DNA from: a virus
IMG/VR virus record: IMGVR_UViG_3300005987_000004
Coordinates: 1-41,763 of that record
DNA length: 41,763 nt
Strand: one strand, 5' to 3'
Below the pieces are notes generated by a model. It saw nothing but the letters and a program-made list of their open reading frames with translations, was not told the origin of the DNA and made no database searches. The position numbers and the translations under genes are program-made. Positions 2,107-9,336 of the stretch are shown here, piece by piece. Every line of letters starts with the position of its first letter. Within the stretch, counting starts at the first letter, position 1.

Positions 2107-2128
2107 CACCAAAAGCGGTGATCGTTAC
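2104..2128 (-). promoter_or_regulatory. Late-strand start-associated motif GTAACG-N16-ATG (endolysin)
   Basis: Minus strand reads GTAACGATCACCGCTTTTGGTGATG. The TAA within it is the giant-ORF stop. Confidence 0.8.
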
Positions 2129-8100: not shown

Positions 8101-9336
8101 CGACGTCGGGTCCGACTGGTAACGGCGGGCGTCCTCCGTGCGCATCCACGGCAGGTAACGGTCCTCGATCTTCCCGAACCCCGACTGCGGGTCCGCAGCC
8201 GTCATCCGACCCTCAATGTCATCCCACTTCGCGTTCAACCACGAACGCACAGCATCAGCCAGCGGACGCTCAGCGTCCGTGGCCTCACGCGCCCCATCCA
8301 ACACCTGATGCACCGAAGCACGCAGATCAGGGTTCACCAGCTTCACCAGCTCACCCAACTCCACCTGAGACAACGCCTGCGCCTCACCCGCAGCAGCACG
8401 CTGAATGTTCCGAGACTCAATCGTCTGAATGAACTGCGCCGCCTCACCAGCAGGCAACTCGCCCCGCAACACAGCCAACCGCGCCGTCTTGTTCACATCA
8501 GGCGTGAACGCCCGCTGCAAGAACTTGCCAACCCCACGGTCTGTTGCTGCCAACCGCAGCCCAGCCAGACCCTTCTCCGTCATCGACCCGACACCGCCCG
8601 ACATCGGCAGACGACGCTCAGCCAGCCGCTTCCCGAAGAAATACACGCCAGCCCGCTTCAACCCCAACTCGGAACGCTCAGCAGCAGTCAGAGCCGAACG
8701 GCCGACACGGGCCACCGTGGCGGCACGTTCCGCCGACATGCCCTTGCGCAGCATGTTCGACGACAACGCCAACCGACCCGAAGCACCAGCAGCCTTCGAG
8801 GCCCCCAACGTCGCATAGGTGAGCGGGTCCAAAGCCACATCACCAATGAACCCCAACGCGCGGTCAACCCACTTGTTGCCAGTGTCAATGTACTGACCCA
8901 CACCATAGTTCGGGTCCTTCGCCTGAGACATGAAATCATCCCACGACGCATCACCAGAACCAATCGCATCCGACAACTCATGAATGCCCGAGATCACCGC
9001 ACGGCGCGGCACATCAAGAATCTGCAACGGCTTCAAGATCGTCTTCGTCACAGGGTTCTCAAGAATGTCGACCAGCAACCCCTGGAACCCGCCAGGGTCG
9101 GCCTGCTTCTGCTGGCCGCGAGCGATCTTCAACGCCTCCAACTCGCGTCCAGTGTCCTGGAAGCGGGTTCGAGCGTAGTTCTCCAACGAGTTCATCTCCG
9201 TGCGAGACGTATCCGCAGCACGCTGCGGGCCAGCCACACCAGGCTGCAACATCTGACGCAAGGACACAACGTTACCCGCACGCGCACCATTACGTGCGCG
9301 TCGGGCCATTTCAAGGCGGGGGTCAATGATTGCCAT
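2125..9336 (-). CDS. Giant 2,403/2,404-aa protein; probably virion-associated internal/ejection protein, function unknown
   Basis: Single uninterrupted ORF covering about 17 percent of the genome. Long Ala/Glu/Arg/Leu/Gln-rich predicted coiled-coil centre and a distinct roughly 490-aa C-terminal region. Its position after the fibre and internal-protein genes mirrors T7 gp16-type proteins. Confidence 0.8.
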   Translation of the reverse strand: MAIIDPRLEMARRARNGARAGNVVSLRQMLQPGVAGPQRAADTSRTEMNSLENYARTRFQDTGRELEALKIARGQQKQADPGGFQGLLVDILENPVTKTILKPLQILDVPRRAVISGIHELSDAIGSGDASWDDFMSQAKDPNYGVGQYIDTGNKWVDRALGFIGDVALDPLTYATLGASKAAGASGRLALSSNMLRKGMSAERAATVARVGRSALTAAERSELGLKRAGVYFFGKRLAERRLPMSGGVGSMTEKGLAGLRLAATDRGVGKFLQRAFTPDVNKTARLAVLRGELPAGEAAQFIQTIESRNIQRAAAGEAQALSQVELGELVKLVNPDLRASVHQVLDGAREATDAERPLADAVRSWLNAKWDDIEGRMTAADPQSGFGKIEDRYLPWMRTEDARRYQSDPTSPYLGELKKGFDDGDPLSVFNHRSLASKVNAGESVDWFGTKLTKEDLYVDRLNELARAGGFSGDFFETDIVTILERYAMQHAEQAGLAARYGALKAVGVMDTLDSKLVRREVFDEDAVAAQVGRVKSFAKQHADAHAEASAAVAKLRDELDNSGSAIAQRLKAIENQRFDAATIASNLRPEVDGLQKALGSASVKLQASYDELHRLFDGAVPEVAEASAAGALRAQRLLDGLFDDVGALLGDTPGVSVKELKRQLDKVGEEITELGRQQARMVEFNEVIAANWERVSAGTRSGDKAVDDVAMALGLVPTDRGFASRAGKAAATAGEMQKWVKNEMPKASWWKRVAGRSTAPIVPSNVAGLNRASVERTLVRSSSSAVSLADLRSAAAWVLARDEKFYGGINPQSPLAQAMEGLLEQLDKAADADDLARRLGAVETRELRQIQRKSVQLNVDVGELEELIKTAQEDVVTFRLARQALRLGEFNGQQLDNTVLNNLRGTINEFAKKEYTLGQGNSTRTFKLGDFFFKERTVVNKAGNEVVERYGSRADDLLELMQNKFTFSPEDAKRWKQYGSPAKAKAELADALQHYYVISDTQHRFNLAARMMAWSGLVPSEAMLRSTVQASAKRWAGHWDARMKQLLTSQGALTDIADEWTRRAPNLSSRPGASAAELRRMFDEAFSRPGGEALRQHVGPALAAAEDPKVMLKKMKHTAYRNDVVKPWYESLFGRWQGVDAAKARLREAKASGRSPFAASATADDVQAFLTEMIGGFNRSKRISARSVGQTVKDTSDWRQAVSGTLLEEFRRTEAQQRLFHGLLDPNVDVDALLQGSTVGSFYAGALKRAADDIDAMALRGPRAPQVPAGTDASFVAAARKDMDRLRRRKNSVDYDIALGDQELHEGIMDLARFDLWRAQSADGQPGFFLPNGTQVVDAQGVPLVFSKVEADSLFQAPMTAEQAKQVRSRMGSISNELGQARKNLEGLLASPNYKRNGEIRPYLFPQKQELEQNIRAMSEELRDLRNAAEASLPQTQAAALSKVRILVDGDESWLRLGVPMRKEVVEPGVPGTPADLSGLGVALEEAEMQLSRAVNDMNSMIVPSQTATDRVAAAEGAVREAKALVDASTERLRVLRTDLKSVRSRHGDPRYTARNERQAKLYEELDAIEKRLAQPVPTRKQSVEVALEDSRERATAMGRQAQLRDELKELSGQARMPQRSPEQIRDEIRVVEDALTQQRWRIRQAEQDLAQVQANRPADRIESVGAEVRKAKIAELQRRVDTLRHQMSLNPVVGGMPERRFSEPVVSSFLADSPTLVRSRMDGQTAAHASTPSRKLLDEIDELEQSVTVNAWRGWAGNTVAVRQHTDTMRSVAAQREAQIAEMQLAVRPQELAIPLAEKRERAYQLMNSFNEKVDTAREGAIVAARGEREAASAVIEQTEKTLAVVGHKYDTARAVVDEMNELMQTTVPRLQERLGVVEKALTDAPAKASADSIDWLQSARQELEMVVSNPEDPISKVVANAIDLEADWLISGQKLAQAQSFLNDLERGTVKWEVEFAKARDGWKTMDAAGLPGLQAPRQIADMLVSMQRIEQPGFAREVNRLFGTYTRFFKSYATLSPGFHVRNIMSNSFVLVASGADPRALTQGFGLWKGLRQSIRDGKGVDTWLATLPEADRAVAEVAARTMFAAGGGHTSDQVADLLRVGKGKVLDNKVLRASQKVGDSYESASRFMLAYDTAVSAVKNGQAPDINEAAARVKQFLFDYRDLSVADQNMRAVVPFWIWMSRNLPMQIMNQWANPKAYAGYNSLMRNIAEPGDDNDIMPSWLDEQGGVKIGEDLYLRPDLGFTRLGEQLAEVGDLPRLLSYVNPAMRVPVEVLGSRQLYNDVPFSENPQSIAAGPLSGPLGSLAEMLGLGERNAEGQVVVDPRVNHVLKNMLPPLAQAERLMPSSAVGVDRQSNSALGILGVPVTRVTPSMKASELARRKREMEELALSSSRLGFQP
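3599..3616. promoter_or_regulatory. Palindrome copy 8: TTGAAAC-GACC-ATTTCAA, inside the giant ORF
   Basis: Encodes ..LEMVVSN.. on the minus strand. It is the only copy in the late arm. Confidence 0.75.

Follow-up and report, generated by a model that had tools for sequence, protein, structure and literature searches.

The giant protein gp47 of the Shiga toxin (Stx) podovirus phi24B is 2,811 amino acids (aa) long, carries the domains LPD5, LPD1, MuF-C and LPD38, and is both abundant by virion proteomics and invisible in the cryo-electron microscopy (cryo-EM) map; its authors propose that it is an ejection protein packaged in the capsid (bioRxiv 10.64898/2026.04.10.717836). A second giant, JC1 gp69, which is the ortholog of Bcep22 gp75, gave 51 unique peptides from caesium chloride (CsCl)-purified virions, with a score second after the capsid protein (PMC9144972). 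Very large ejection proteins are held to pass at least partly unfolded (PMC8402733). We analyzed the IMG/VR virus record IMGVR_UViG_3300005987_000004 over positions 1 to 41,763 (a stretch of 41,763 bp, hereafter the window), in which a single minus-strand gene (2125..9336, with its stop codon at 2125–2127) takes up 7,212 nt, or 17.3% of the window, and encodes a protein of 2,403 aa. With a probability of about 0.68, this protein is an internal virion protein of a temperate P22/SU10-like podovirus, packed in the head and ejected at infection. It is most likely an effector-less relative of the giant virion proteins known from Shiga-toxin, Burkholderia and Ralstonia phages. We infer packaging and ejection from its homology to proteins found in virions and from its gene context, and the effector-less character from its middle, which has no recognizable domains, unlike the enzyme-bearing middles of its relatives.

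The homology to these giants lies in the C-module of the window protein (~aa 1944–2401; 2137..3510, minus strand), which stands at the extreme C-terminus in the full-length matches listed. In phi24B, the corresponding gene is HM208303 vb_24B_48 (2,807 aa), the last gene of the late region, whose Pfam domains we confirmed (LPD38 with a score of 166.6 bits); a large homolog search with phi24B gp48 as the query returned E. coli copies only, 95–100% identical. The C-terminal 707 aa of the phi24B protein are common to giants encoded last in the operon of other phages: Vibrio D70 (3,066 aa), Bacillus Dartukuta (4,203 aa), Ralstonia Gerry and GP4 (~4,219 aa, labeled "DarB-like antirestriction"), Burkholderia BcepIL02 (4,667 aa), E. 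coli PTXU04 (2,197 aa), and Bacillus Pony and Pookie (1,679 aa). JC1 gp69 is the ortholog of BcepIL02 gp70, the protein sampled here. When the C-module of the window family (125 sequences) was compared by hhalign with a seven-phage alignment, the two aligned over 385 collinear columns in local mode (probability 89.7%, P 1.9e-6, score 58.8) and over 385–432 collinear columns across both modes, global mode giving a probability of 96% and P 1.7e-9; the family motifs aligned one to one with the seven-phage profile. In the controls, reversing either profile gave P 0.25–0.3, and 20 column shuffles gave P of at least 0.11 with scores of at most 22.4. The signal comes from an unannotated domain immediately upstream of LPD38. 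With a split template, this core domain (~aa 1982–2185; 2785..3396, minus strand) gave P 3.9e-7 and a probability of 92.8% over 183 columns, shuffles again staying at P of at least 0.11, and the superfamily features at this place are ...T..NP.F.V.N..., E.A.R and AY, followed by LPD38. Judging from these profile comparisons, the core domain is homologous to a domain of the phi24B, BcepIL02, Gerry, D70, Dartukuta, PTXU04 and Pony giants. Several of these relatives, from phages of Proteobacteria and Bacillus (phi24B, the BcepIL02 type, Gerry and Dartukuta), have recognized or annotated methylase/helicase, peptidase, LPD5 or LPD1 domains in their middle.

The C-terminal tail that follows (~aa 2186–2401; 2137..2784, minus strand) is collinear with the LPD38 of phi24B and is not independently significant: the LPD38 segment alone gave P 0.059 over 25 columns, where shuffles reach P 0.13, and Pfam LPD38 (PF18857) had no match in 11 family C-modules at E-values (E) up to 10. 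On these two grounds, we make no claim of LPD38 membership for the window protein. Predicted viral structures, searched by Foldseek with the C-terminal half of the protein, returned metagenomic phage proteins bearing the UniProt name [quoted passage not shown] (E 1e-27 to 5e-15), gp37 of the Microbacterium phage Shocker (E 9.5e-7) and, more weakly, a protein named after LPD38.

A search of 5.8 billion proteins gave 161 matches, the best 120 of which make up our family survey. The window protein has three parts: an N-module of ~460 aa behind a basic, disordered leader, an all-helical spacer, and a C-module of ~460 aa that is the evolutionarily constant core. The leader (~100 aa; 9034..9336, minus strand) is probably disordered, as its residues 1–102 have a predicted local distance difference test score (pLDDT) below 50, and has a net charge of +4 per 100 aa. 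It opens with the peptide MA(V/I)xDPRLE(M/L)ARR (first 14 codons, 9295–9336, minus strand), which is conserved in most metagenomic members and may be a head-incorporation or processing signal. The N-module (~aa 61–521; 7777..9159, minus strand) is conserved in all 120 homologs listed, and its core is also present in MW202803.1, MW202795.1, Arthrobacter Jasminevirus gp27 and Shocker gp37; with matches mapped on the query, conservation on this side continues more weakly to ~aa 800. Its most characteristic sequence, the N motif GFIGDVALDPLTY (8815..8853, minus strand), has invariant G, G, D, D, P and Y residues, follows the family consensus GF(I/V)GDVALDPLTY, always lies 101–200 aa from the N-terminus, and occurs in gp27 of the Arthrobacter phage Casserole as GFVGDVALDPLTY.

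The centre (~aa 850–1940; 3520..6792, minus strand) is A/E/R/L/Q-rich, poorly conserved, and, by the same mapping of matches, the least conserved part of the protein. The C-side motifs of the family are YTxFFKAYATLSPGFHVRN, VEGSxRF, AYD, FDY, PFWxWMSRNLP and NPxLRVPxE, those of the core domain itself being YTxFFKxYATLSPGFHVRN, E(S/G)xxRF, AYD, FDY and PFWxW. Across the family, the FHVRN motif sits 325–399 aa from the C-terminus, and the stretch that separates it from the N motif ranges from 517 to 2,649 aa across relatives, about five-fold. The invariant polar residues all fall in the end modules, and none in the centre.

The open reading frame (ORF) itself is uninterrupted on the minus strand at 2125..9339 and counts 2,404 codons from an in-frame GTG at 9339, the ATG at 9336 being the second codon. 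Translation probably starts at this ATG, which gives the product of 2,403 aa, because the Shine-Dalgarno-like site GAAAGGGCAGG lies at the right distance (six bases before the ATG) and because homologs begin with MA..DPR. A 98% identical protein, also of 2,403 aa, is present on independent public metagenome contigs, and the ORF is therefore no assembly artefact. A preliminary description of the window had reported an uninterrupted ORF at 2125–9336 covering ~17% of the genome and lying between three putative internal-protein genes and the endolysin. The coordinates hold on the minus strand with the ATG start, the flanking annotation agrees with that placement, and both peptides quoted there from the termini are found in the translated protein.

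The listed homologs (best 120 of 161) measure 2,080–3,163 aa and are all unnamed or "hypothetical"; many lie on contigs of 36–43 kb, which corresponds to about whole phage genomes of the size of the window. Pfam gave no credible domain in these 120, the lone precomputed match (PF04108, an autophagy-type family, in P0053) being read as coiled-coil noise. A HMMER search with the C-module profile against 1.84 billion representatives recovered 8,049 clusters at E of at most 0.001, 4,867 at 1e-10 and 1,262 at 1e-30; by its sequence matches, the C-module family is thus very large, and it is unnamed in Pfam, PHROGs and NCBIfam. A second large homolog search with the C-module profile gave close fragments only. 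Among deposited phages, megablast of the gene found no match and tblastn found MW202803.1 only (Podoviridae sp., 42 kb), in which a 1,312-aa protein with both modules and a short centre (9646–13584) adjoins a D-Ala-D-Ala carboxypeptidase gene and carries the GenBank label "chromosome segregation". A 1,106-aa version of the family protein is encoded by MW202795.1, a podovirus with WhiB genes, and, used as a query, led to Shocker gp37 (1,743 aa), Cellulosimicrobium DS1 (1,783 aa) and Casserole gp27 (Jasminevirus; 1,803 aa, the length of the phrog_36598 profile). Hidden Markov models (HMMs) of the two modules recognized Casserole gp27 (N-module E 1.5e-14; C-module weak, E 1.5e-4) and Shocker gp37 (E 6e-8 and 6.5e-15, respectively). 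In MW202803.1, MW202795.1, Shocker, Casserole and DS1, the large gene is the last of the structural operon before the lysin. The labels given to relatives are inconsistent ("chromosome segregation," "DarB-like antirestriction," "putative methyltransferase," "hypothetical"), and the part they have in common with the window protein fits none of them.

In a scan of one genome per bacterial species, the window-type C-module occurred in five contigs of metagenome-assembled genomes (MAGs), four of which are assigned to Actinomycetota, the fifth (38 kb) being binned as Methylococcus. One of them, from an Ilumatobacter sp. MAG (DATMEY010000005.1, 384 kb), holds a short member at 220106–227227 (ORF of at most 1,069 aa, 1 Cys) that probably sits in an integrated prophage. 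The hosts of the closest relatives are likely to be Actinomycetota.

Searches for known domains in the giant protein gave almost nothing. Pfam (E up to 1) and NCBIfam had no match, PHROGs gave a single short one (phrog_36598, aa 152–190, E 9.9e-7), and PDB sequences, queried both with the protein alone and with a profile of 28 sequences, produced coiled-coil or helical-bundle noise in the centre only. A motif scan of the protein found no Walker A, DxDxD, NADFDGD-like, HExxH or GLMQ sequence. AlphaFold2 models of residues 1–1200 and 1205–2404, of moderate confidence (mean pLDDT 72 and 70, predicted template modeling score ~0.43), are nearly all alpha-helix, with helices mostly 30–55 aa long, and Foldseek found no match in the PDB for either 1,200-aa half at E of at most 0.001, in a fold library that includes the solved ejection proteins of T7, P22, N4 and DEV. 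The earlier statement that the protein has no recognizable enzymatic motif thus agrees with Pfam, PHROGs, NCBIfam, PDB sequences, PDB folds and the motif scan alike. The heptad-like centre described at the same time is indeed A/E/R/L/Q-rich and helical, and clean heptads cover only ~135 aa in a crude count. Given the length of the modeled helices (30–55 aa), the centre would form A/E/R/L/Q-rich bundles or hairpins, not one long coiled coil.

These results bear directly on the alternative that survives best, which we nevertheless regard as unlikely, namely that the protein is a polyvalent effector carrier whose centre holds novel domains for anti-defence or host takeover and whose conserved ends deliver them, in the manner in which the DarB-like domains of Bcep22-type phages are delivered. 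Homologs of the C-core do bear MuF-C peptidase, LPD5 and LPD1 domains, and others are annotated as DarB-like or as methyltransferases (PMC9144972); the viral fold matches bear names of LPD-containing proteins, Iyer et al. 2017 (PMC5512222) described many LPDs whose function is unknown, and a fast-diverging centre would suit an arms race. However, Pfam and NCBIfam are empty for the window protein, and Pfam matches are not credible in the cultured relatives or in the best 120 of 161 homologs. Moreover, the centre is modeled as plain helical bundles with no mixed alpha/beta folds of the enzyme type, catalytic-type motifs are absent, the invariant polar residues are confined to the end modules, and the spacer length varies continuously (517–2,649 aa) and not by module addition. 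The unrecognized effector domains that had been suggested for this protein therefore do not find support, as those 120 homologs hold no credible Pfam domain and the centre is the least conserved region. We did not retain the label of polyvalent protein in the sense of Iyer et al. 2017, which implies at least two domains of disparate activity in one polypeptide: neither the Pfam, NCBIfam and PHROGs searches nor those of PDB sequences and folds yielded an enzymatic or known domain.

The internal virion protein that we favor, a Cys-free chain expelled from the head, is also consistent with amino acid composition. The 2,403 aa of the window protein contain no cysteine at all, and neither do any of the family members examined (126/126), the scaffold of the same phage or its three proteins of 180, 282 and 357 aa encoded upstream; the other 14 phage proteins average 1.04% Cys, and the chance of a zero count is ~1e-11. 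Cysteine is likewise absent from the PTXU04 (2,197 aa) and Pony (1,679 aa) giants and from the large proteins of Casserole gp27, Shocker gp37 and DS1 type, is absent from the sampled parts of D70, Dartukuta, Gerry and BcepIL02 (N-terminal 700 aa plus C-terminal ~1,200 aa), and occurs twice in phi24B. Such an absence would be as expected for chains that cross a narrow channel unfolded and act outside the cytoplasm. Most of the genes ahead of the other giants are Cys-free too (phi24B 44–47, 26476–29118; PTXU04 24, 158–1012; Pony 17–19, 69–2566). As a side observation, Cys-free gene runs may mark ejection cassettes.

Absence of cysteine is also one of the arguments against a second alternative, which we consider distinctly improbable, that the protein is internal to the capsid and never ejected, being an inner-core, scaffold-like or head-filling part that arranges the DNA or sets its pressure. 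This would account for a phi24B homolog that is abundant and unresolved in the map; in P22, the internal proteins and the DNA vie for space in the head (PMC8402733), the scaffold of this phage is Cys-free as well, and an elongated helical build fits a core. On the other hand, the podovirus internal proteins that have been studied (T7 gp14–16, P22 gp7/16/20, N4) are ejected (PMC8954989), and a loss of Cys in ~126 proteins is hard to explain if they never leave a reducing or closed capsid.

Gene context is the other argument for an ejected internal virion protein. The giant gene is the last of an operon in the order terminase, portal, scaffold, capsid, adaptor, nozzle and fibre, and stands immediately ahead of the endolysin. 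On the minus strand, this operon encodes the large terminase (20874–22466), an SU10/P22-type portal (18243–19973), the Cys-free scaffold (17361–18227), an SU10-type major capsid protein (16404–17342), an SU10-type adaptor (15373–16038) and a 527-aa nozzle-like or tubular-tail-B protein (13790–15373) that is homologous to the nozzle of actinophages having a related large gene. Past the nozzle gene come two fibre-like proteins, and then three minus-strand genes without family match whose products have 180 aa (11291–11833), 282 aa (10439–11287) and 357 aa (9366–10439). These three genes (9366–11833) encode putative companion internal or ejection proteins. The 180-aa product is weakly similar to Casserole gp25 and to a 141-aa protein of MW202803.1, and no similarity was detected between the three products and the proteins encoded just ahead of the giants in phi24B, PTXU04 and Pony. 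Next to the giant gene, on its downstream side, lies the endolysin, a VanY/M15 D-Ala-D-Ala carboxypeptidase (1471–2112, minus strand; start uncertain). The giant genes of phi24B, BcepIL02, PTXU04 and Pony also stand last in their structural operons.

The gene set of the window contains no tail tube, sheath, chaperone, baseplate or tape-measure gene, and confirms that the phage is a P22/SU10-like podovirus. Its closest capsid relatives in deposited phages are MW202803.1, Mx8/Mx9, Bradyrhizobium ppBjS10J-1, Stenotrophomonas BUCT555, Ruegeria 45A6 and the Brucella Tb/Pr group, which is the Mx8/Pr lineage that Hardies and colleagues described among the P22-like podoviruses (PMC10386132). Searched with the module HMMs, four relatives by capsid lineage (Mx8, Brucella Pr, ppBjS10J-1 and BUCT555) had no homolog of the giant protein; where its gene would lie, they have several virion or internal-protein genes of intermediate size, and peptidoglycan hydrolase domains occur in some of these.

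This context leaves very little room for a tape-measure-like or external tail or fibre protein acting as a ruler of appendage length. Such a protein would be long and helical, with a length varying among relatives, and weak viral fold matches to tape-measure and minor-tail proteins were indeed obtained (E 0.01–1). However, those to tape-measure proteins in BFVD have E of at least 0.09 and are not significant, tail-tube, sheath, chaperone and baseplate genes are missing, the portal, adaptor and nozzle are of the SU10/P22 podovirus type, the cultured podoviruses Jasmine and Shocker have stubby tails ~10 nm long (PMC5513430), and the phi24B homolog is not visible on the particle surface. Tape-measure homology together with overlooked tail-tube genes, which the preliminary description had raised against its own reading, is thus not what we found, given a podovirus gene set and tape-measure matches that are not significant. 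A nucleic-acid enzyme, either an SMC-like ATPase or a cryptic virion RNA polymerase (as N4 gp50 or in crAss-like phages), is the least credible of all, since the "chromosome segregation" label of the MW202803.1 homolog, insignificant SMC/MukB coiled-coil matches and a size similar to that of virion RNA polymerases are set against SMC matches in coiled-coil regions only (E of at least 0.1), the absence of Walker A, DxDxD or NADFDGD-like motifs, the absence of any PDB fold match to SMC heads or polymerases, and a temperate-type genome with an integrase and no virion polymerase identified.

The opposite arm of the genome encodes an integrase, an exonuclease, a DnaB-like helicase, a primase and RusA, a gene content that points to a phage of temperate type. 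Plus-strand genes include those for the tyrosine integrase (32730–33785), the RusA resolvase (39582–40067), a small sigma-70 region 4 protein (40989–41402) and a nucleotide-modification-associated DUF1599 protein (41–535). A plus-strand ORF of 233 aa (1384–2085) overlaps the endolysin gene, has no family match, and is probably spurious because the overlapping minus-strand ORF is the VanY/M15 peptidase. Two adjacent plus-strand proteins encoded within 26831–29978 are unusually Cys-rich (671 aa with 15 Cys and 358 aa with 12 Cys, 2.2–3.4%) and match only PHROGs of unknown function. The guanine-cytosine (GC) skew of the plus strand is negative across nearly the whole window whichever strand is coding (minus-strand genes 1471–23467, plus-strand genes 26831–41707) and positive at ~24000–26000 only; this asymmetry is therefore independent of the direction of transcription.

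Taken as an ejected internal virion protein, the giant would be loaded into the capsid in a few copies during assembly and, on infection, leave through the portal-tail channel either before the DNA or together with it. Being helical throughout and free of Cys, the chain would thread through the narrow tail channel in an unfolded state and fold again once outside the cytoplasm. The conserved ends would do a common job, which may be incorporation at the portal or core, the building of a DNA conduit with the three upstream proteins, or both. A mechanical role may be envisaged, be it the trans-envelope channel or ruler of the preliminary description or a motor or plug, and we argue against simply copying the T7 periplasmic tunnel, since the lack of hydrophobic segments and the probable Actinomycetota hosts of the relatives weaken a picture in which the protein spans a periplasm. 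The earlier suggestion that the protein is virion-packaged and ejected thus receives indirect backing from operon position, C-module homology to two giants detected in virions, and absence of Cys.

Several observations weigh against this interpretation. No sequence or fold similarity to the solved T7, P22, N4 and DEV ejection proteins in the PDB was found, the fold searches having used 1,200-aa halves of moderate confidence in which domain-level matches may be hidden. There is no peptidoglycan-hydrolase domain, unlike in T7 gp16 and many internal proteins, and no predicted transmembrane segment, the maximum Kyte-Doolittle mean over 19 residues being 1.1. The homology to giants verified by proteomics covers ~200–400 of the 2,403 residues, and the shared domain could be a head-incorporation signal that is silent on ejection. 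At the other end, comparison of the N-module with phi24B-type N-termini reached P 0.31 when three templates were used and P 0.07 when seven were, only a 20-column motif being aligned; kinship of these N-termini, plausible by eye and not significant by hhalign, was not retained. Finally, we found no proteomics in the literature for Jasminevirus gp27, Shocker gp37 or the DS1 proteins.

A broader and more tentative proposal, which we would not yet count as probable, is that the core ~200-aa "FHVRN...E...AYD...FDY...PFW" domain and the strict absence of Cys together mark a universal delivery chassis of podovirus giant internal proteins, the window family being its cargo-less form. If so, its reach would cover phages of both monoderm and diderm hosts and 8,049 clusters in public data. 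The ancestral job would be mechanical, that is, head incorporation and the building or driving of a DNA-entry conduit, with a spacer adapted to the envelope of the host, and the DarB-like, peptidase and LPD effector domains would be later passengers. In a variant reading, the invariant polar residues of the core domain would make up a novel active site directed at the cell envelope. Giant genes that take up 17–25% of small podovirus genomes are a recurring puzzle, and their labels track whichever passenger domain or coiled coil was noticed. One unannotated C-terminal domain and a Cys-free signature tie the environmental family and the actinophages to the Stx, Burkholderia, Ralstonia, Vibrio and Bacillus giants. 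The core domain is a basis for a new annotation model, and an effector-free member lets the core function be studied without enzyme domains. Cultured, tractable hosts exist in Arthrobacter, Microbacterium and E. coli (with phi24B or PTXU04), and, if spacer length tracks envelope or capsid dimensions, the family would naturally lend itself to testing how phages with short tails bridge the cell envelope.

Among described systems, Microbacterium cluster EK phages such as Burro resemble the window phage in that an actinobacterial podovirus carries a very large gene (>4,400 aa), whose processed product is virion-associated in Burro (PMC7302621). The gene for Burro gp27 (4,491 aa; 14189–27664) is located upstream of the portal gene instead of closing the series of tail genes. 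HMMs, a motif regular expression and BLASTP were all negative for the N motif and the C-module in Burro gp27, which we discarded as a relative and regard as an analog only; the comparison with these phages in the preliminary description does not extend to homology, since neither module is present. On a side note, actinobacterial podoviruses have at least two unrelated giant virion gene lineages, one of Burro type and one of the window-family type.

The ejection proteins of T7 (gp14, gp15 and gp16) and P22 (gp7, gp20 and gp16) occupy a comparable genomic place, behind the tail-tube genes where the structural operon ends, in a series running from small to large genes, and are largely helical. 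They are expected to be carried in the head, to leave it in an unfolded state and to fold again in the envelope (PMC8954989, PMC8402733), a behavior that the window protein would share by analogy alone. It differs from them in having no detectable sequence or fold similarity and no lytic transglycosylase (GLMQ/SLT) domain, and this single polypeptide is larger than the three T7 ejection proteins combined.

Closer likenesses are found among the giants with the shared C-terminal domain. Bcep22 gp75, BcepIL02 gp70, JC1 gp69, and gp28 of GP4 and Gerry have a C-terminal module of ~700 aa whose first domain is homologous to the window C-module, and each is encoded by the last gene of the virion module, ahead of the lysis genes (PMC9144972). 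With 4,200–4,670 aa, the Bcep22-type and Gerry proteins are about twice as long as the window protein and have a centre annotated as methylase/helicase (DarB-like), and the anti-restriction role assigned to them is not transferable to it. As for phi24B gp47, which belongs to the 933W-like Stx podoviruses and bears the name "LPD38 domain-containing protein," it and the window protein are both encoded by a giant last gene of the late or structural region with small Cys-free genes ahead, have zero or near-zero Cys, and contain a homologous domain near the C-terminus followed by a collinear tail. LPD5, LPD1, the MuF-C peptidase and a Pfam-detectable LPD38 are present in the phi24B protein, and none of these is detected at Pfam level in the window protein; the host of phi24B is E. 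coli, a diderm, whereas the relatives of the window family indicate Actinomycetota. Lastly, the Jasminevirus, Shocker and DS1 proteins have a spacer 600–700 aa shorter and belong to lytic phages with ~46-kb genomes, direct terminal repeats and a partly different capsid lineage. Nevertheless, Casserole gp27 and Shocker gp37 carry the N motif GF(V/A)GDVALDP(L/T)TY at an equal distance from the N-terminus, Shocker and DS1 have the C-module, and these actinophage proteins share with the window protein a homologous upstream nozzle, the position before the lysin, a complete lack of Cys and the label "hypothetical."

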